Source of the DNA: Candidatus Micrarchaeota archaeon | GTDB taxonomy: Archaea > Micrarchaeota > Micrarchaeia > Norongarragalinales > UBA8480 | DNA: 44,667 nucleotides | Direction of reading: 5' to 3' | Assembly (NCBI GenBank): GCA_021812145.1 | Contig: JAKAOM010000001.1 | Span: forward strand, 87,898-132,564 | Shown here: piece after piece, positions 13,610 to 44,234 of the stretch | How positions within the stretch are numbered: position 1 is the first letter of the stretch | Layout: every line of letters begins with the position of its first letter | Translations under genes and position numbers: made by a program | Notes under the pieces: generated by a model | What the model saw: the letters and a program-made list of their open reading frames with translations, nothing else | Told to the model about the DNA's origin: nothing | Database searches by the model: none

Positions 13610-13747
13610 GCCGCAGTAGCTCAGCTGGTTAGAGCGCCAGTTTTTCTTGGATTTGCCTTGAAATAGGGCGTGACTCATAAATTCTAACTCAGGATTTGAC
13701 TGGATTGGGCTATCTGGAGGTGGGGGGTTCAACTCCCCCCTGCGGCA
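13610..13747 (+). tRNA. Elongator tRNA-Met(CAT) with two introns (30/31: 13641-13672; 37/38: 13680-13711)
   Basis: Removing both 32-nt introns gives a 74-nt cloverleaf GCCGCAG...CCAGA-CTCATAA-TCTGG...CTGCGGCA. Both junctions fold as BHB motifs. Confidence 0.9.
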
Positions 13748-15722: not shown

Positions 15723-16010
15723 GAGTGTGAGGGCGGTACCCCGCCTTTTGTTGTACGAAAAACACCGCGTGTTTTTCTTTTGGCAGCATTAATCTAAGCG
15801 GCTTTAAAAAAGCCTTGCGCCATACGGTGGGGCTCGTTTCACTTCGCTCGCGCGTTAAAGCATCGTTTTTGTCATTTGCTGAAAAACGCCGATCGAATGT
15901 CGTTTCTGCTCCCCACCCCTGCCTTAAGCAGGGAAGGTTTTGCCTTCTGTTTGATTTTTGGTGGGCGGAAGTTCCTCCCTATGAAGGGTAAGCTGCCCGC
16001 CTTCACGCTC
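15723..16010 (-). ncRNA. rnpB: RNase P RNA (archaeal, about 288 nt)
   Basis: Minus strand has GAGGAACTTCCGCCCAC, GCAGAAACG, TGAAACG and ACAAAAGGCGGGG; P1 GAGCGTGAAGGCGG/CCGCCCTCACACTC; P2 GGCAGC/GCTGCC. Confidence 0.9.
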
Positions 16011-25526: not shown

Positions 25527-25654
25527 GCAGGGGTGGCAGAGTCTGGTCAAATGCGCAAGGCTTAGGCCTTTTTGGTGTTTTCAAAAAGTAGGAAACCTTG
25601 TACCTTAGCGGTTGCCTGGGTTCAAAACAATATGTGAAAATCCCAGCCCCTGCA
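25527..25654 (+). tRNA. tRNA-Leu(TAG) with two introns (37/38: 25567-25594; 59/60: 25627-25640)
   Basis: Acceptor GCAGGGG/CCCCTGC+A; spliced anticodon arm CAAGG-CTTAGGA-CCTTG; long variable arm; both introns form BHBs. Confidence 0.92.
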
Positions 25655-33273: not shown

Positions 33274-33409
33274 GCCGGGATGGCAGAGTGGTAATGCGCA
33301 CGCCTGGAATTTTTTCTTCAGCTTTCAGTTGAAGTTATTGCTCGTGAGCGTGTGGCCGAAAGGCCTCCTGAGTTCGAAATTCGATTGTTCGAAAATCTCA
33401 GTCCCGGCG
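33274..33409 (+). tRNA. tRNA-Ser(GGA) with two introns (37/38: about 33310-33346; 59/60: 33379-33395)
   Basis: Acceptor GCCGGGA/TCCCGGC+G73; arm CACGC-CTGGAAA-GCGTG after splicing; variable arm GGCC-GAAA-GGCC. The anticodon-intron BHB is imperfect. Confidence 0.85.
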
Positions 33410-34444: not shown

Positions 34445-34953
34445 GCGATGTAGTAGAAGCTAAAAGCGAAGTTAAAGAGAATAAACCTGAAGTGAAAACA
34501 GAGCAGGGAACCGGTTTTTCTTCACAGGGAAAGCGCGAGTTCAGACCTAGAAGAGAGGTTGTAATTCACGAGGGAAAGTGGGGGGTTGCCCATATATTTT
34601 CATCAAAAAACGACACTATTATAACCATAACCGATTTAAGCGGTGCTGAAACAATTGCAGTGGCGAGCGGTGGAATGATAGTTAAGGCAGACAGGGAGGA
34701 AGGCGGTGCCTACGCTTCAATGCAGGCCACCTTCAAGGCTGCTGAAAAGGCAAAGCTTAGAGGGGTTGAAGGTGTTCATGTTAGAATTAGAGCTCCAGGC
34801 GGGCACGGCAACAGAAATCCTGGTGTTGGAGCTCAGTCAGCCATCAGAGCTTTAGTTAGAAGTGGTTTAAGAGTTGGAAAGATTGAAGACGTTACCCCAA
34901 TTCCAACCGACACTACCAAAAGACCTGGAGGAAAAAGAGGGAGGAGAGTTTGA
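34441..34953 (+). CDS. rps11: 30S ribosomal protein uS11
   Basis: [35 protein letters not shown]. Confidence 0.96.
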
Positions 34954-35639
34954 AGTCTGATCTAATTGAAAAGAACGGGAACAGGGCTTTCTTTCACGTT
35001 AAGGATTCTAGCTTCGCAGAGGTAAACTCTCTGAGGAGGTTTATCTTAACAGGACTTCCAAGCTTTGCCATAGACGAGGTTACCTTTCACGAGAATTCAA
35101 GCAGTTTATTCAACGAGTTCATTGCAGCTAGACTTGGATTGGTTCCATTGACTTTTGATGACGTTGATTACGAGGTTGGGTTTTCACTTGACTTCAAAGG
35201 GCCTGGAGTTGTCTACAGTAGGGATTTGAAAAGTTCGGACAAGAAAATAAAGGTTTTCAGCGAGGATATTCCATTGATTGAGTTGGATGCAGGGCAGAGT
35301 TTAAGGTTTGACGCGGTTGCCAGAAAGGGTTTTGGAAAGGACCACGCCAAGTTTCAGAATGCTTTTGCAGGCTACAATTCATACCCTGAAGTGAAGGGAA
35401 AGGTCAAAAACAAGGAGGAGGCTGCAAAGCTTTGCGTTAAAGGAGCCTTGAATTCAGACCTTGATTTGGTAAAACCTCAATTGTGCGATTTCTGCGGTGC
35501 TTGCGAAGCTGCGGGCCTTAAGGTTTCCACAATAGAAGGCGAGTTTGCGTTTTTCGTCGAAAGCTTCAACAATGTTTCTCCCGAGGATATTTTTGAGCTT
35601 GCGGTTAAAAGTTTAAAAAAGAAAAAGGGCGGTGATTGA
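34950..35639 (+). CDS. rpoD: RNA polymerase subunit D (Rpo3)
   Basis: NSLRR, AIDEV.F.EN.S, RLGLVPL, G.GKDHAKF, Fe-S motif CDFCGAC. Confidence 0.94.
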
Positions 35640-35651
35640 AATAATGGTTAC

Positions 35652-35751
35652 GCAGGGGTGGCAGAGTCTGGTCAAATGCGCATGGCTAAGGACCATGTAC
35701 CGTAGAGGTTGCCTGGGTTCAAAACCACTGGTGGAAATCCCAGCCCCTGCA
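35652..35751 (+). tRNA. tRNA-Leu(AAG), A34, with a 14-nt intron at 59/60 (35724-35737)
   Basis: Anticodon arm CATGG-CTAAGGA-CCATG puts AAG at 35688-35690; body nearly identical to tRNA-Leu(TAG); T-loop BHB. Confidence 0.92.
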
Positions 35752-35778
35752 TTTTTTGCTTTCAAAGGTGTTTTTTAA

Positions 35779-36126
35779 ATGATTATTGGTAGCGACAATC
35801 CTGAATTCCTTAGGCTTTTGGCTTTTCTTGAAAGAAAAGGAAGAAAGGAAAAAAGCGGTTTTTGGCTTCGAGTGGTGGAGCTTTTGAAAAAACCCAGAAG
35901 AAGGAGGGTGGAAGTTAATCTTTACAAGATCGGAAAATTCGACTCAGACTTTATAGTGGTGCCTGGAAAAGTTTTGGGAGTAGGCAATGTTGGAAAGAAA
36001 ACAATCGGCGCCTTGAGCTTTTCTGCAACCGCAAAAAAAAGGATAGAGGAGAGCGGCGGAAAGGCTTTGAGCTTGATGGATTTCGCCGAGAAGGTAAAAC
36101 AGGAAGGAGTTATGATTGTTGTTTAA
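35779..36126 (+). CDS. rpl18e: 50S ribosomal protein eL18
   Basis: PRRRRVEVNL.KI, VVPGKVLG.G, FSATAK..I...GG. Confidence 0.95.
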   Translation: MIIGSDNPEFLRLLAFLERKGRKEKSGFWLRVVELLKKPRRRRVEVNLYKIGKFDSDFIVVPGKVLGVGNVGKKTIGALSFSATAKKRIEESGGKALSLMDFAEKVKQEGVMIVV

Positions 36127-38501: not shown

Positions 38502-38575
38502 GGGGTTGTGGGACAACTTGGTCAGCCTATCAGCTTAGGGAGCTGAAGATCCGAGTTCAAATCTCGGCAACCCCA
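38502..38575 (+). tRNA. tRNA-Pro(AGG), A34, no intron
   Basis: Acceptor GGGGTTG/CAACCCC+A; anticodon arm TCAGC-TTAGGGA-GCTGA puts AGG at 38537-38539; T-arm CCGAG-TTCAAAT-CTCGG. Confidence 0.9.
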
Positions 38576-38681
38576 TCTCAAATTGTTAATAGAAATATGT
38601 AAGTTATGTTTTCTTTGTGTTGTATATTCAAATGGTTTGAATAAAAGGTTTTTAAATATTGCCTTTCTTATTTTAATGTCA

Positions 38682-41600
38682 ATGAGCTTGCAGGATTCAT
38701 ATTATAGTTTTATTTCTAATACTCCTTTGAAGGGTGTGGCGATGGCTATTGAGAATGCGGGAATTCCAAGCTTTCCTGTTTTTATTATATTAGCTCTTTT
38801 GATTGTCGGAGGGTTGGGCTTTATTGTTTTTTCCAGTTTTTCAGGAGTTCAGCAGGGTTATTCTGTCAATGTTTTAAGTTCTTCCGGCCCTGTAAGCGGG
38901 GCTATGGTCACTGTCTCTTATCAGGGAAAGGTTTTGACAAATTATACTGACGACAGTGGGAACGCTGTTTTTTCAGGAGTTCCTTCAAACGCTCTTCCCA
39001 GCGTTTCTGTAAACGCCAGCGGGTTTTCTTTTGTTTCCAAGCAGGGTCTTTCTTCAGGAAGTCCTATTAATCTTCAAACCGTCCCTGCCAGCGTGACTTT
39101 AAGCGTTCAAAGCACTGGCAGCGCGCCTATCAGCAATGCAAACGTTCTGTATCAGGTTGGCGGCGGTGCAATTCAGTCAACTGTGACTGACGGTAACGGT
39201 AACGCTGTTTTGACTGTTGCTTTAAACTCTCAGGTTTCAGGAACAGTTTCAGCCAGCGGTTATCAAACTGGCAATTTTTCATTCACTGTTTCGCAGCAGT
39301 CTATAAGCGAGAGCGTGGTTTTGAATGCAATTACAACAACCACAAATAATCAGGCTTTGATGATGACTGCTCAGGATCAAAATGTTATTTCAAGTCCTGA
39401 CACCAACACTTCTGCTTATAATATAGACTCTAACAATAATTTCGCAAGCAACGCTAGCGTTTACGTGACTGTATCTGATTTGAACGGCAATCCTCTCAAC
39501 GCAACTGTTGATCTTTTCTTGAACGGCTCTTCAAACTCTTTCGCTTCCATTCTTGCAAGCAACGGAACAGCTGTTTTTTCTGTTGGCGTTGGAAGCAGCG
39601 TTTACGCCACAGCTTCTCTTGACGGGTACGCTTCTTCATCCTCAGCAGCGGATGTTGTTTCAGCCAGCGGTTTGAACTTGGCTGTTTCTTTAACGCCAGT
39701 TAATTATCAGAACACTACAAACGTTACTGTTAGCGTTTTCGCTAACTCTTCCAATGGAACGATTCCTGTTTCTGGAAGTATTTATTTATGGACCTATCCA
39801 TTACAAAACGTGGTTTACGAGAGTTCTTCTTATGAAAGCGGAGCTGTGATAAACGTTCCGGTTGGAGTTGGTTTTAGAGTAGGTGTTTTTTCAGCTGGTT
39901 ATTTAGCCCAAATTTCTCCTCTTGAGTTCGCTTTAAACTCTTCTCCTCTTGAAGTTAATTTTTCAATGGTCAACGCCACTCTTCAAAACTCTTTCACTTT
40001 GAATGTTTCAACTGTTGATTTCTACAACAACCCTGTTTCCGGAGCCTATGTAAGCGTTTATGATAAGGGAGTTGTTTTCCCTCTTGATATTCAGAATTTT
40101 CAAACTGATTTTAACGGGAATATTTCAATTCCAGGCCTTCCTCTTCCGATAAACGGTTTCAGCGTTTCTGCTGTTTCAAGCGCTTACTCTGGAAAAACTT
40201 TGCTTAACGCAAATTCTTCAATTAACGGGACTGTTTCAGCAACTGTTGTTCTCCTTCCACCTATAACCACCGTCAGTGTTGAAGCTTATGGTTTCGACGG
40301 AACTCCTTTGAACGCTACTTTTTCAAGCTATTTTGTTGATTCTAACAATCAGCCTCAACTGATAGATTCTTGCTCTTCTCAAGCTCCCTCCACCTGTAGC
40401 CTTAAAGTTTTTACTGGCGTTTCTCTTGTATTGCAGGCTTCAAGCAATCAAACTCCCGGCTATCTTCCAGCGGTTTACTCAAGCCAGTTCAATCCTAAAG
40501 ATTCTTATTTTGAGAATTTCACTCTTTACCCTACCAACTCTCCTTTGCTTGGAAGCTTCAATGTTTTCGGTCCCTGCAATTGGAATGACTCCTACTCTTC
40601 ATGCTCTAACGACACTTCTCTTTCTCCTTCTTTGTTTAACGCAAGCAACGGCAGTCTTACTGTTGGAATGAAGTATTACGCTGTTTTCAAAATCAACGTT
40701 AACACCACTGCCGATCATTACGGCGTTTATTTCTTGACTGGCAATTCAAGCGGTGATGTTTTAAGCGACAACGCTGCTTTGATGAAATTCCCTGTTGACA
40801 TGCTTACCTATAGTTCAAGCGATGTTTTCAATCCTGCCTATTTCAACGATAGCGGTGACACTGGGTTTAACAGCGGTTGCGGTTCAACTATTTTAAACAC
40901 TTCATTAGGTTTTTACAAGTGGGTTGAATCAGTATCTCAAATTCCTTCAAGCGCTTCTTCTTCAAGTGTTGCAACTTATACTGTTCAAATTCCTTTCATG
41001 ATAACCGCTTCTTCTCCAGAAGGTTTGAATGTTTTCTACAGGGTTTTTGAAACTTCCAACAATTCTTACATTCGCGATCCTTTCGACTCGAGGCTTAACG
41101 TTTCGGCTTCAGCGCCTGGAGTTCAGGAGTGCAACGCGGCGGTTTATACTCAGCGCTTCCATGTTTTTCAGGATAATAATAGTGAAACGCTTTGCAGCGA
41201 TCAGGCTTGCTTGAAGGTTTATTGCGAAGTGCCTGGAGTTTCAAGCCAAGCTCGCTGCTACAATGTTAACGTTCCTGCCTTCAGCTATCAAGGCAATGTT
41301 TTGAATGTTTTCTACAATATTTTAGACATGAATCCCGACAGTTTTGCCGGAACTCCTCTTTCAATAGGCTCTTCCGCCATCTCTCCTTTTGACAGCAATT
41401 ATCTAACCTTGGCTTACGCCAACCTAACTCCTGCCGGGAGTTACTTTAATAACATTGTAAACCAGACTATTTTCAACTCTACTGGGAGCGGGGTTTTGAA
41501 TTTAACCAATAATGGGAACGCTTCTGTTCAAAACATTGTTTTCACTTATGGTTCAAAGCTTTCCTTCACCACCAGCGTGAATTTAAGCAGCGCTCCGCAG

Positions 41601-44234
41601 CCAGTCTCTCTTCTTCCAGCCCTTCCGAGTGGCTATATAGTTAACTATAATCAAAGCGCGGGTAATTTAAGCCTTGACTTTTTGAATGGTTCTTCTTCTT
41701 CAGGCATTCAGTTTTATTCAGACCCTATAATGCCTGCCGACGCTGTCTTTCTTGTTTTGAATCAATCTTCTGTCAGCTGTGGTCAGGGAATGCAGGTTCA
41801 CTTAACCAACCTAACTGACCAGTGCGTTACAATCAACAGCATTCAGAACGATCCTGTTCTTTCTGGCTTGTCTTCTTACTTGAAGGCTTGGGGTGGCAGT
41901 GTTTACGTTTTAAGGTACGATCCAACCAACCCTCAATGCAGCGCTTTCTCAATAAACCCTAACGTGGTGAATAACTTCAACTCGAATGGTTTAAGCGTGG
42001 GAAATATATGCAATGGGGTTTACGCTAACTTTTCAATACAAGCTAACTCTACTAAACCCACTTCCTGCTCTCAAACCGGTTCAAGCAGCAACGGCTACTG
42101 CGCTGTAACTGAAAAGCAAGCGTGGAGCGAGTCTGCAATGTCCACTTCCGTAAACCCGGCAGGCAAAACAAACACTGTTGGCGTTTTGATTAACAACAGG
42201 GTTTACTCGCAGAGCGGAACGGTTCCGTTGAACAACACCAACGGCGGGGCTTTCAACAACCCTCAAATCAGCGTTCAGCAGCAGATAACCCTTCAAGACC
42301 AGGGCGGTTTTTTCACTATTTCAAGCATGAACAATTCAATTCCAACTCCTTTGATTAACGTTTCCGGTTCAACAACAATCCCTGCTCCTGCTTTTGACCC
42401 TATGGGTTATGGCGGCACTTCTCAAATTCCTGCCGACAGTTCAAGCGATTTCGCAGACTTGGTGGAGCTTTCAAATTCTTCATTCTACGGCAGCGCTTTG
42501 GCTGTTTTGAACAACACTGCTTTTAGAAGAAGTTTGCCGAACAGTTTCGGAACTCCTATTCAGCTTTCATCTTTCCCTTACAGCGCTTTCGCTTCTGTCA
42601 ATAATACTAACATTTCATTTGCTTTCGGCGCTGACTGGCTTGGAAAGAGCGGTTCTGGAAGCGTTGACTTCAGTTTTGCAGGCGTCAACACTCCAAGCAA
42701 TTGTACAACGCAGAATCAGAGAGGGGTTTACGGCTTGACTTTGACTTACTCTCCTTCCAACGGAACGGTGAGCATTCAGGCGAACCCGTTGAGTTTTGGA
42801 ATGCAGAACGACTTCGCGCACCTTCAAAACTTGAACGTTCAAATGTGCGGTACGATGAGCTTCAACCCTGCAACTCAGAACTTCCAGAACACCGGCGACG
42901 GGTGGTATTATTCTGCTTATCCAGGGACAGGAGGCACTTTAAGCGACGGTCATTCTTTCAACGTGAACATGGTTCACCCTGCTTACAATGCTGTAGCTTT
43001 CGTAGGTCAGTCGGTTGTAAACGCCGGCAAGGCTTTCGCTTCTTGTGGAGTTTCAGATCTTGCCGCTTACGGCGCTTGCACGGTAGCATTCAACATTGCT
43101 TTGGCTGCATCCTGTTCAACTTATTGTTCACCATCGGCTAGCGTGCCTTATGCTGGTTTTGCAACTTATGCTGCTTGTGATTCTTCTTGTATAGGTGCTG
43201 GCGGTAATGGTCCTGGAGGTGCTACTGCTAATCTTGCAGGAATAGCTGCTTTTCAAGGCAGTTTTTCAGCCGCGACGGCTGCTTTCGATGCTGCTCTCAA
43301 AAACATTCATATTGACGTAACTCCAGGTGATGTTTATGATGCTTCAAGCTTTTTAGGCACTCTTAACACCATTTGTCAGGTTGCAAGTCCTGTTGCAAAT
43401 ACTGTCAACAGCATTGTAACTAGTTACAAGGCAACAGAGCTTGTTTCTAAGGAGGCGTCTACAGATCAGGGAAGTTTGTGTGGAGAATATGCAAGTCAGA
43501 CTTTTGATTCTAGCTGCGCTTGTGGTACTGCTGTTTTTGGTTCCACATCCTCAAGTGCATTGTCAGTTTCAGGCTGTTGGATTGAGAAGGGACTGCTTGC
43601 TGCGTACTCTAGTAATTCTATTCAAACTGCTAGCTATAATACTAAAACTGCTATTGATGATACTAAAACTGCTTCTGAAAAGGCTGATGCTACTCTACAA
43701 ACTGCTGGAGCTGCATCTCCATTCAGTCAGAGTGCATATGACAAGGCATTAGTTGCAGATGAAGAAGCTGCAGGAAAACTTGAAAGCGCAAATGCCTTAG
43801 ATAACGTATTGAATAAACCAGATAGCAAGGTTGGCTGGCTTGACGAGTCTACTAGTGTGATTAATGGATTATGCACCTACCCCTACATGGTTTTGGGAGC
43901 TATTCAAACACTAGGAGCGTTCGGAGGAAACAAGCCGGCATATGTTGGAATTGGAATCAGTGGAAGCGGTTCAAGCTCCTGGCTTACGGCTTTTGAAACG
44001 GTTTTCGGAAGCACTGTTCAGAAGGGAAATGTGGATTGCTCAAACGCTTTTAACTTCGACCCATCACAGAAAACTTTTGCCTGGAATAATTTCGACCTTG
44101 TAAGCCTTAGGGCGTTTGAAGGAATGAATGGGCAGTGTTATTCTGCAAATAATATAAAGACCTACGTTCCTTCTGGAGACTTAAACCCTGGAAGTCAGAC
44201 TGCAACATTCTACATTTCAAGCAAGATTCAATAA
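38682..44234 (+). CDS. Giant membrane-anchored surface glycoprotein (about 1850 aa) with carboxypeptidase-regulatory/Ig-like beta-sandwich repeats and a Cys/Ala-rich helical C-terminal region
   Basis: N-terminal GIPSFP plus TM anchor; repeated PVSGA.V...TD..G.A.F motifs; many sequons. Start set by alignment with the paralog at 44307. Confidence 0.8.
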   Translation: MSLQDSYYSFISNTPLKGVAMAIENAGIPSFPVFIILALLIVGGLGFIVFSSFSGVQQGYSVNVLSSSGPVSGAMVTVSYQGKVLTNYTDDSGNAVFSGVPSNALPSVSVNASGFSFVSKQGLSSGSPINLQTVPASVTLSVQSTGSAPISNANVLYQVGGGAIQSTVTDGNGNAVLTVALNSQVSGTVSASGYQTGNFSFTVSQQSISESVVLNAITTTTNNQALMMTAQDQNVISSPDTNTSAYNIDSNNNFASNASVYVTVSDLNGNPLNATVDLFLNGSSNSFASILASNGTAVFSVGVGSSVYATASLDGYASSSSAADVVSASGLNLAVSLTPVNYQNTTNVTVSVFANSSNGTIPVSGSIYLWTYPLQNVVYESSSYESGAVINVPVGVGFRVGVFSAGYLAQISPLEFALNSSPLEVNFSMVNATLQNSFTLNVSTVDFYNNPVSGAYVSVYDKGVVFPLDIQNFQTDFNGNISIPGLPLPINGFSVSAVSSAYSGKTLLNANSSINGTVSATVVLLPPITTVSVEAYGFDGTPLNATFSSYFVDSNNQPQLIDSCSSQAPSTCSLKVFTGVSLVLQASSNQTPGYLPAVYSSQFNPKDSYFENFTLYPTNSPLLGSFNVFGPCNWNDSYSSCSNDTSLSPSLFNASNGSLTVGMKYYAVFKINVNTTADHYGVYFLTGNSSGDVLSDNAALMKFPVDMLTYSSSDVFNPAYFNDSGDTGFNSGCGSTILNTSLGFYKWVESVSQIPSSASSSSVATYTVQIPFMITASSPEGLNVFYRVFETSNNSYIRDPFDSRLNVSASAPGVQECNAAVYTQRFHVFQDNNSETLCSDQACLKVYCEVPGVSSQARCYNVNVPAFSYQGNVLNVFYNILDMNPDSFAGTPLSIGSSAISPFDSNYLTLAYANLTPAGSYFNNIVNQTIFNSTGSGVLNLTNNGNASVQNIVFTYGSKLSFTTSVNLSSAPQPVSLLPALPSGYIVNYNQSAGNLSLDFLNGSSSSGIQFYSDPIMPADAVFLVLNQSSVSCGQGMQVHLTNLTDQCVTINSIQNDPVLSGLSSYLKAWGGSVYVLRYDPTNPQCSAFSINPNVVNNFNSNGLSVGNICNGVYANFSIQANSTKPTSCSQTGSSSNGYCAVTEKQAWSESAMSTSVNPAGKTNTVGVLINNRVYSQSGTVPLNNTNGGAFNNPQISVQQQITLQDQGGFFTISSMNNSIPTPLINVSGSTTIPAPAFDPMGYGGTSQIPADSSSDFADLVELSNSSFYGSALAVLNNTAFRRSLPNSFGTPIQLSSFPYSAFASVNNTNISFAFGADWLGKSGSGSVDFSFAGVNTPSNCTTQNQRGVYGLTLTYSPSNGTVSIQANPLSFGMQNDFAHLQNLNVQMCGTMSFNPATQNFQNTGDGWYYSAYPGTGGTLSDGHSFNVNMVHPAYNAVAFVGQSVVNAGKAFASCGVSDLAAYGACTVAFNIALAASCSTYCSPSASVPYAGFATYAACDSSCIGAGGNGPGGATANLAGIAAFQGSFSAATAAFDAALKNIHIDVTPGDVYDASSFLGTLNTICQVASPVANTVNSIVTSYKATELVSKEASTDQGSLCGEYASQTFDSSCACGTAVFGSTSSSALSVSGCWIEKGLLAAYSSNSIQTASYNTKTAIDDTKTASEKADATLQTAGAASPFSQSAYDKALVADEEAAGKLESANALDNVLNKPDSKVGWLDESTSVINGLCTYPYMVLGAIQTLGAFGGNKPAYVGIGISGSGSSSWLTAFETVFGSTVQKGNVDCSNAFNFDPSQKTFAWNNFDLVSLRAFEGMNGQCYSANNIKTYVPSGDLNPGSQTATFYISSKIQ

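Follow-up and report, generated by a model that had tools for sequence, protein, structure and literature searches.

We analysed a stretch of 44,667 nucleotides from the genome of a Candidatus Micrarchaeota archaeon (GenBank assembly GCA_021812145.1, contig JAKAOM010000001.1, positions 87,898 to 132,564 of the forward strand; hereafter the window), and concentrated on the tRNA-Leu gene that lies at 35652-35751 (+) between rpoD, which encodes RNA polymerase subunit D, and rpl18e. This gene has the anticodon AAG, i.e., it encodes an adenosine at the wobble position (A34), and it is accompanied by a tRNA-Pro(AGG) gene; GAG and GGG are usual at these two places in related genomes. Taken together, the sequence comparisons suggest that it probably gives rise to a functional, spliced tRNA-Leu with a genomically encoded A34, and that the pair of Leu and Pro genes has arisen more than once in the phylum. 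The genome of the window (G000) is metagenome-assembled (757 kb in 26 contigs, 77.7% complete, about 40% G+C) and forms genus g1 of family f1 with two congeners, G001 (61% complete) and G002 (94% complete, 68 contigs).

The sequence at 35652-35751 is a real, intron-carrying tRNA-Leu gene of class II with the anticodon AAG. Its 100 nt comprise 86 nt of exon and a 14-nt intron, and CCA is not encoded. A cloverleaf can be drawn by hand, with a 7-bp acceptor stem (GCAGGGG/CCCCTGC), U8, a D-arm with G18G19, an anticodon stem CATGG/CCATG and a T-stem CTGGG/CCCAG, and the discriminator A73. The anticodon loop CTAAGGA (35686-35692) has U33 and a purine at 37, and the anticodon occupies 35688-35690, with A34 at 35688. 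The long variable arm (TACCGTAGAGGTTGC, 15 nt, 35698-35712) is a trait of class-II tRNA-Leu, and 21 nt stand in place of the 7-nt T-loop. Searched with Infernal under relaxed filters in a 301-nt stretch, the Rfam tRNA family RF00005 matched exactly these 100 nt over its full model (1-71) at 44.0 bits, against a gathering threshold of 29 (E 2.1e-8), with 15 bases in the T-loop where one is expected. Standard searches missed the gene: in the window, ARAGORN called only tRNA-Gly(ccc) and tRNA-Pro(agg), and Rfam with gathering filters returned three tRNAs and the RNase P RNA and left out both tRNA-Leu genes; a whole-genome Infernal pass of G000 (38 matches) also passed it over. The gene is invisible to ARAGORN and to the fast filters of Rfam because of its 14-nt T-loop intron. 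Folded without splicing, the 100-mer does not adopt a cloverleaf as its minimum free energy (MFE) structure, which is unexceptional (z -1.67); such a result is expected of an intron-bearing precursor and carries little information. Two further elements were read by eye around the gene: a six-T run directly 3' of the discriminator (35752-35757, +), which is a possible archaeal terminator, and TTTAAAAA at 35612-35619, about 33-40 nt 5' of the tRNA start and within the end of rpoD, which may be a TATA box of its own.

The slot of the gene is conserved in Micrarchaeota, as had been proposed in an earlier reading of this DNA made from the letters alone (the original prediction). By Pfam matches, the order of the locus is S13, S4, S11, RpoD, tRNA-Leu, L18e, L13, S9 and RpoN, with rpoD at 34950-35639 (+; PF01000, PF01193) and rpl18e at 35779-36126 (+; PF17135, PF00828). 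We surveyed 80 S11 loci, 73 of which also have RpoD, and found the anticodon arm of a tRNA-Leu between RpoD and L18e in 63 of these 73: two AAG, 53 uninterrupted GAG and eight GAG with a candidate intron at 37/38. Seven of the ten loci without a call are of the Asgard/Baldr type, with a gap of only ~130-150 nt; under a stricter rule, the 73 loci gave two AAG, 50 GAG and 21 without a call. The two AAG loci are the same sequences as the congeners G001 and G002 and were counted once. All 12 genomes of family f1 could be resolved: the three of g1 have AAG (CTAAGGA), and the nine of four other genera have GAG beside RpoD (CAGGN TTGAGGT). Since the other genera of the family carry GAG and those of g1 AAG, the A34 of the slot tRNA-Leu is derived and fixed in the genus. 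Across the order, the exact A34 pattern was found in three of 68 genomes, all of them g1, at a low sensitivity, as the same pattern with G was found in only 20 of the 68; further lineages with A34 have thus probably escaped detection.

The gene differs from its GAG orthologues in carrying A34 where they have G34, and C32 and A38 where they have T at both positions, and its pair 31-39 is G-C. A paralogue, tRNA-Leu(TAG), is encoded at 25527-25654 (+) with two introns, one of 28 nt at 37/38 and one of 14 nt in the T-loop that is homologous to that of the AAG gene. The two genes are identical in their first 31 nt, the T-stem, the 3' strand of the acceptor stem and the discriminator, and their anticodon stems (CAAGG/CCTTG in the TAG gene, CATGG/CCATG in the AAG gene) differ by one compensatory pair. 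The original prediction had pointed to the match of the 5' 31 nt and of the 3' end, to the compensatory pair and to a T-loop intron that differs in sequence yet keeps its bulge-helix-bulge (BHB) motif; the sequences agree with it on all three, and the motif can be drawn in both genes. The AAG gene resembles the UAG paralogue in its loop, its 31-39 pair, its T-stem and its lack of a D-loop intron, and the GAG orthologue in its slot and its variable arm, which has the same sequence as in the slot tRNA-Leu(GAG) genes from locus L026 and genome G005. All nine slot tRNA-Leu(GAG) genes of the other f1 genera (loci L231-L239) have a D-loop intron, which is absent from the AAG gene of g1. In some relatives, a T-loop intron occurs at the same place as in the AAG gene. 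The shared 5' 31 nt and the lack of the D-loop intron hint at gene conversion by a UAG-type gene, and the replacement of the slot copy by such a gene followed by T34A seems as plausible as a direct G34A change in the Leu gene.

An A at a single position of a metagenome-assembled genome of 26 contigs could be an artefact of sequencing or assembly, or a minority form of an ordinary GAG gene. Contigs from four runs of one study (one of which may be the source of the assembly) have solely A at 35688, as well as at 38537, the A34 of the tRNA-Pro gene, and they differ from the window at eight other positions. Among the runs listed as containing the locus, none was of RNA. Both other species of the genus carry the same A, and relative to the GAG orthologues the loop is altered at 32, 34 and 38, three positions rather than a single one. 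As far as the contigs reach, this explanation is refuted, and we find it hardly credible. The original prediction had named as a refutation that close relatives all have GAG and, together with this, that reads do not support the A. The first holds outside the genus (nine of nine genomes); the second does not, since the contigs of the four runs read A.

The conservation of the gene supports selection on it rather than decay. Between G000 and G001, the sole difference in the exons is a compensatory change, C27-G43 to T27-A43, and G002 has one further base changed in the loop of the variable arm. The introns of the congeners differ in length (14 versus 23 nt) and are unalike in sequence, and RpoD is only 81-82% identical among the same genomes. 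The gene is kept in all three g1 genomes, and no tRNA-Leu(GAG) gene was found in G000 or G002. This fits the earlier view of a core, selected gene rather than a pseudogene.

The T-loop inserts of the AAG and TAG genes can both be drawn as a BHB motif of the type h-B-H-B-h', in which the T-stem would form the outer helix, next to a 2-bp inner stem. The 4-bp helix would pair T54 T55 C56 A57 with TGGA in the AAG gene or TGAA in the TAG gene, between bulges of 3 nt each (AAA and AAT). Cuts after the second base of each bulge would excise 35724-35737 from the AAG gene, i.e., an intron at 59/60, and leave TTCAAAT, which is the T-loop of other tRNAs in the genome and would be the product in both genes. 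By sequence alone, the A-run permits any intron position from 56/57 to 59/60 with an identical product. As drawn, the insert has the two 3-nt bulges, the 4-bp helix and the canonical product of a BHB intron, and in the congener with the 23-nt intron the MFE fold itself contains the helix and a 3-nt bulge. A splicing endonuclease is encoded by a 378-aa open reading frame (ORF) with two matches to the catalytic domain (PF01974; 77 bits in G000, 76 bits in G002); PF01974 gave no match in G001, which is 61% complete. A T-loop intron together with an endonuclease gene is ordinary for the phylum.

The window encodes a second A34 gene, an intronless tRNA-Pro(AGG) at 38502-38575 (+; called by ARAGORN, 56.6 bits with RF00005). 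It is 96% identical in both congeners and occupies the place after rpoN where relatives carry tRNA-Pro(GGG). Among 57 S11 loci with RpoN, 28 have uninterrupted GGG at this place, at least six more have GGG with an intron (including L026 and L063), and two have AGG, i.e., the congeners. An apparent AGG in L026 and L063 was rejected, because the BHB, read by hand, sets the intron at 34/35 and gives GGG. The 5' half of tRNA-Pro(AGG) matches the GGG orthologue of L026, which makes a direct G34A change the simplest origin of this gene.

These two genes are the only ones with A34 that we found in a census of tRNA genes, made with our own scanner anchored on the T-arm and with Infernal. In G000, 43 tRNA genes were assigned and two candidates remained unassigned. 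The CUN box is served by CAG, TAG and AAG, and the CCN box by CGG, TGG and AGG; other boxes keep G34 (Val GAC, Thr GGT, Ala GGC, Gly GCC, Ser GGA), and no GAG or GGG arm was found in a tRNA context in this genome. The pattern is the same in G002: across its 68 contigs, A34 is again confined to Leu and Pro, and tRNA genes with GAG or GGG were not found. Several automatic calls were rejected. The 'Ser(aga)' reported by ARAGORN in G000 (C3:19835-19927) is Gly(TCC) with an intron at 29/30, its two 'Leu(aag)' (C26:38554-38655 and C26:40055-40156) are Leu(TAA) with an intron at 30/31, and in G002 its 'Ala(agc)' (L200:2032) is Leu(TAA) and its 'Phe(aaa)' (L220:9692-9807) is Ser(GCT). Automatic A34 counts in intron-rich genomes of this kind are unreliable and err in both directions. 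Separately, the only tRNA-Arg genes found in G000 and G002 have CCG, TCT and CCT (G000 C1:28076, C6:71957 and C8:22921), and an 'Arg(GCG)' in L020 comes from GC-rich coding DNA and is spurious. CGN codons account for 0.55% of all codons in G000 and 0.62% in G002, as against 3.0-4.2% in three members of the family that have G34; they are also low (0.4-1.1%) in the genomes G083, G184 and G415 described below, and yet G083 has Arg GCG and TCG.

The pair of A34 genes is not restricted to g1. A scan of 401 sampled genomes of the phylum with the exact A34 pattern matched seven (G000, G002, G083, G184, G359, G415 and G086), of which the match in G086 is not a tRNA. A scan that allowed one mismatch was uninformative; of its candidates, those in G165, G326 and G180 turned out not to be tRNAs. 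G083, G184 and G359 make up the complete set of g50 genomes (a genus of family f13), and G415 belongs to family f14; all four have a tRNA-Leu with CAGGA CTAAGG^A TCCTG between RpoD and L18e, with a canonical intron of 13-15 nt. tRNA-Pro(AGG) is found in seven of seven genomes with Leu(AAG), i.e., three of g1, three of g50 and G415. In G083, a single contig of 952 kb for which 42 Infernal tRNA hits were parsed, Leu and Pro are the only tRNAs with A34, and G34 is kept in Thr GGT, Val GAC, Gly GCC and Arg GCG; GAG and GGG are not among these 42 hits, and neither are Ala GGC and Ser GGA. Sister genomes show GAG: 24 genomes of 12 other genera in f13 (121 genomes searched) and 53 genomes in f14, including four of the genus of G415 (101 genomes searched). 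As GAG is found in these sister genomes, the Leu(AAG)-Pro(AGG) pair arose at least twice in Micrarchaeota, probably three times. Related genomes are not independent, and the A34 cases are accordingly counted as events and not as seven data points.

The anticodon loops changed at more than the wobble position. In G34 orthologues, the loop of tRNA-Leu is mostly TTGAGGT, TTGAGGG or CTGAGGC, and the A34 genes have CTAAGGA or CTAAGG^A. For tRNA-Pro, the A34 loop is TTAGGGA versus TTGGGGT, with the exception of CTAGGGC in G415. The 32-38 pair tunes the strength of the anticodon, and the change of position 38 along with 34 may reflect such a tuning in the A34 genes. The A34 tRNAs of Leu and Pro also have G36 and G37 in common (context A34-N35-G36-G37). 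Loss of Trm5, the m1G37 enzyme, was rejected as a driver of the change, as PF02475 is matched in five of the five A34 genomes examined.

Recurrence bears on the alternative that the gene is dispensable. tRNA-Leu(UAG), which is present in G000, G002 and G083, could read CUU and CUC by four-way wobble, and the A34 gene could then be a near-neutral mutant of the GAG gene drifting to loss. Small DPANN genomes readily lose genes, and four-box tRNAs with A34 (tRNA_ANN) expressed in E. coli are described as mostly neutral in passages of one preprint (bioRxiv 10.64898/2026.05.15.725136). Drift accounts poorly, however, for exons that are near-constant in three species down to a compensatory pair while the intron diverged, for the retention of the BHB, for the alteration of position 38 along with 34, and for the same paired changes recurring and being fixed in three of three g50 genomes. 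Nor does it fit the codon use: CTT, which the original prediction judged by eye to be a favoured codon, is the top Leu codon of G000 (6071 of 18,540, i.e., 32.7%, in 602 ORFs of at least 120 aa). We consider dispensability improbable.

We return to a functional tRNA-Leu(AAG), for which we propose the following pathway. The precursor would be transcribed from the rpoD-rpl18e spacer, the splicing endonuclease would excise the 14-nt T-loop intron at the BHB, CCA would be added, and LeuRS would recognise A73 and the long variable arm and charge the product, position 34 being no Leu identity element. In g1, this tRNA would have taken over from the ancestral tRNA-Leu(GAG) as the sole dedicated decoder of CUU and CUC, with tRNA-Leu(UAG) and tRNA-Leu(CAG) covering CUA and CUG, and tRNA-Pro has undergone the parallel change from GGG to AGG. 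A34 would most likely remain unmodified, pairing in Watson-Crick fashion with CUU and reading CUC less well, possibly with help from tRNA-Leu(UAG). One study describes unmodified A34 as preferring U, with modest pairing to C and weak pairing to G and A (PMC11066159), and the preprint cited above reports that four-box tRNA_ANN expressed in E. coli are unmodified and neutral or beneficial (bioRxiv 10.64898/2026.05.15.725136). We favour the unmodified state because no wobble deaminase was found in two of the three lineages.

Codon use is suggestive in this respect, not decisive. The share of C among U- and C-ending codons, C/(T+C), is lowest of seven boxes in Leu (0.19) and Pro (0.22) in G083, where the others range from 0.38 to 0.60; G184 has the same Leu and Pro minimum, from only 3617 codons. 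In G000, this share is 0.149 for Leu, 0.235 for Pro and 0.147 for Val, and in G002 it is 0.225, 0.381 and 0.192. Relative to Val, the Leu share is 1.0-1.2 in g1 versus 1.3-1.5 in three G34 genomes of the family. The sequences thus present a four-codon box, no deaminase found and a preference for U-ending codons, as might be expected of an unmodified A34, with a bias specific to Leu and Pro that is clear in g50 and not in g1.

Several observations weigh against this interpretation. The Leu share of C in g1 (0.149) is not below that of Val (0.147), which keeps G34, and the Pro share in G002 (0.38) is not low; the genome of the window shows no special C depletion in Leu and Pro, and its genus thus gives no evident sign that codons have adapted to A34. 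CUC (1065) and CCC (902) codons are still used in G000, so some tRNA must read them adequately. The census can miss tRNA genes that are split or have multiple introns, and no decoder of CGU, CGC and CGA was found in g1 (G000, G002). With G000 and G001 at 77.7% and 61%, the claims of absence come mainly from G002 and G083. The drawn BHB has energies of -6.9 (AAG gene) and -5.7 kcal/mol (TAG gene) and the MFE folds -9.8 and -8.1, which places it 2.4-2.9 kcal/mol above the MFE for both Leu genes of the window. Finally, G415 encodes a 137-aa TadA-like protein (NF008113, 44 bits, against a cut-off of 150), because of which inosine at position 34 (I34) is possible there, and a deaminase of an unrecognised family may be conceived of in any A34 genome.

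The main competing explanation is that A34 is deaminated to inosine, yielding IAG and IGG anticodons that read U-, C- and A-ending codons like those of eukaryotes, by a divergent protein of the cytidine deaminase (CDA) fold or by an unrecognised enzyme. Across life, an encoded A34 is nearly always I34 and comes with the loss of G34, according to passages of two papers (PMC8879553, PMC11066159), and G000, G002 and G083 do encode A34 with no G34 isoacceptor found, as I34 substrates would. The continued use of CUC and CCC, the TadA-like protein of G415 and the context A34-N35-G36-G37, which one enzyme could recognise in both tRNAs, point the same way. We searched for the enzyme and met no TadA/ADAT-type deaminase in g1 or g50 by sequence similarity. 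PF00383 and PF14437 had no match above cut-off in G001 or G002 and matched one 158-aa protein in G000; PF02137, the family of ADAR/ADAT1-type deaminases, matched in none of the three g1 genomes, and a deaminase of that type was rejected as the A34 enzyme.

The CDA-fold protein of G000 is unusual, and its presence in G083 and G184 as well speaks for a role in deamination. Its best matches are, however, ComEB (36 bits, far under the cut-off) and structures of dCMP deaminases (PDB 2hvv, 1vq2 and 4p9c), TadA giving a weak N-terminal match. Homologues were found in neither of the two congeners and in 24 of 38 relatives outside the genus, where all carriers with a resolved slot, e.g., G020, have GAG. 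In G083 and G184, the sole deaminase found is this dCMP-deaminase-like protein, and G359 has none. As its distribution does not track A34, this ComEB-like deaminase was rejected as the A34 enzyme. The protein is encoded at C5:7810-8283 (-) in G000 (equivalent to L111:1429-1905), C1:316358-316753 in G083 and C3:64872-65258 in G184; it begins with MRYLSE, has an extra CxxC...H before HAE and is closest to two-zinc dCMP deaminases.

Two further facts argue against inosine: the tRNA-Arg of G083 is still GCG, though ACG is the classical substrate of TadA, and the share of C-ending codons in G083 and G184 is lowest precisely in the Leu and Pro boxes, though I34 pairs well with C. Overall, we regard inosine as unlikely, though less so than dispensability. 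A specific version, in which a deaminase of an unrecognised family or a recruited two-zinc CDA-fold protein acts on A34-N35-G36-G37, is more doubtful than inosine in general, about as improbable as dispensability; it would explain the joint switch of Leu and Pro and would be the first case of wobble inosine in Archaea.

The window has other features that we note in passing. A tRNA-Met(CAT) at 13610-13747 (+) apparently has two introns (~30/31 and 38/39; 52.8 bits with Infernal, with one 67-nt insert), and a tRNA-Ser(GGA) at 33274-33409 (+), just upstream of S13, has a canonical 37-nt intron and a T-loop intron; a GGA tRNA occurs at the equivalent place in ~32 related loci. An archaeal RNase P RNA lies at 15725-16008 (-; 96.1 bits). 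An ORF of 1883 aa at 38583-44234 (+), whose start is inside or just after the tRNA-Pro gene, has one CarboxypepD_reg domain as its sole Pfam match.

Archaea are described as lacking, or almost lacking, both A34 tRNA genes and TadA/ADAT in passages of three sources (PMC11066159, PMC8879553, bioRxiv 10.64898/2026.05.15.725136), and a part of the last counts three tRNA_ANN among 10,517 archaeal tRNAs of 220 genomes. Full-text searching of the literature brought up no work on A34 tRNAs from Micrarchaeota or DPANN. In the present genomes, entire genera are fixed for A34, in core slots of the ribosomal operon, where it replaces G34, always in Leu and Pro together and with more than one origin. Such lineages offer natural material on why unmodified A34 is avoided and on what makes it tolerable. 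A34 genes are probably under-counted in DPANN genomes, because routine tRNA finders miss them or mis-call their neighbours.

Compared with the tRNA-Leu(GAG) that other Micrarchaeota have in this slot of the S13/alpha-operon region, the gene has the same slot and class-II body but differs by A34, by the altered positions 32 and 38 and by the lack of a D-loop intron. Non-canonical BHB introns are known from Thermoproteales and from ARMAN/Micrarchaeota, and the three-unit endonuclease of ARMAN has a broad specificity. The gene is like these in its short T-loop intron with two 3-nt bulges and a 4-bp helix as drawn, and in the 378-aa endonuclease ORF of its genome. The ADAT2/3-dependent tRNA-Leu(IAG) and tRNA-Pro(IGG) of eukaryotes are encoded with the same two anticodons and likewise stand without G34 isoacceptors; eukaryotes switch seven or eight boxes with ADAT, whereas the present switch is confined to two boxes, and searches of g1 and g50 yielded no homologue of ADAT/TadA. 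Among bacteria, Leu-AAG is listed with the commonest tRNA_ANN and is found in Leuconostocaceae/Lactobacillales and a few other genera, at least in parts of two sources (bioRxiv 10.64898/2026.05.15.725136; PMC13249217). As far as those sources describe it, the bacterial tRNA-Leu(AAG) shares with ours A34 in a four-codon box, the absence of its G34 partner and fixation by lineage; the bacterial owners of tRNA_ANN have TadA and some of their tRNAs have I34, whereas the present genes are archaeal and no TadA-like gene was found in two of their three lineages. The archaeal intron and the constant pairing of Leu with Pro also set the present genes apart. Orthogonal tRNAs with A34 act as A34 decoders in E. 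coli, according to part of one study (PMC11066159). The nearest parallel to our preferred reading is provided by decoders with an unmodified A34. These include tRNA-Thr(AGU) of Mycoplasma, tRNA-Arg(ACG) of yeast mitochondria and a mutant tRNA-Pro(AGG) of Salmonella. All share with the present genes a four-codon box, A34 and no deaminase found; such decoders read U best and C to some extent, as the present tRNAs would, and the Salmonella mutant has the same change of tRNA-Pro from GGG to AGG. Those decoders belong to organelles, minimal bacteria or laboratory mutants, whereas the A34 genes described here are natural and have evolved repeatedly in free archaeal lineages.

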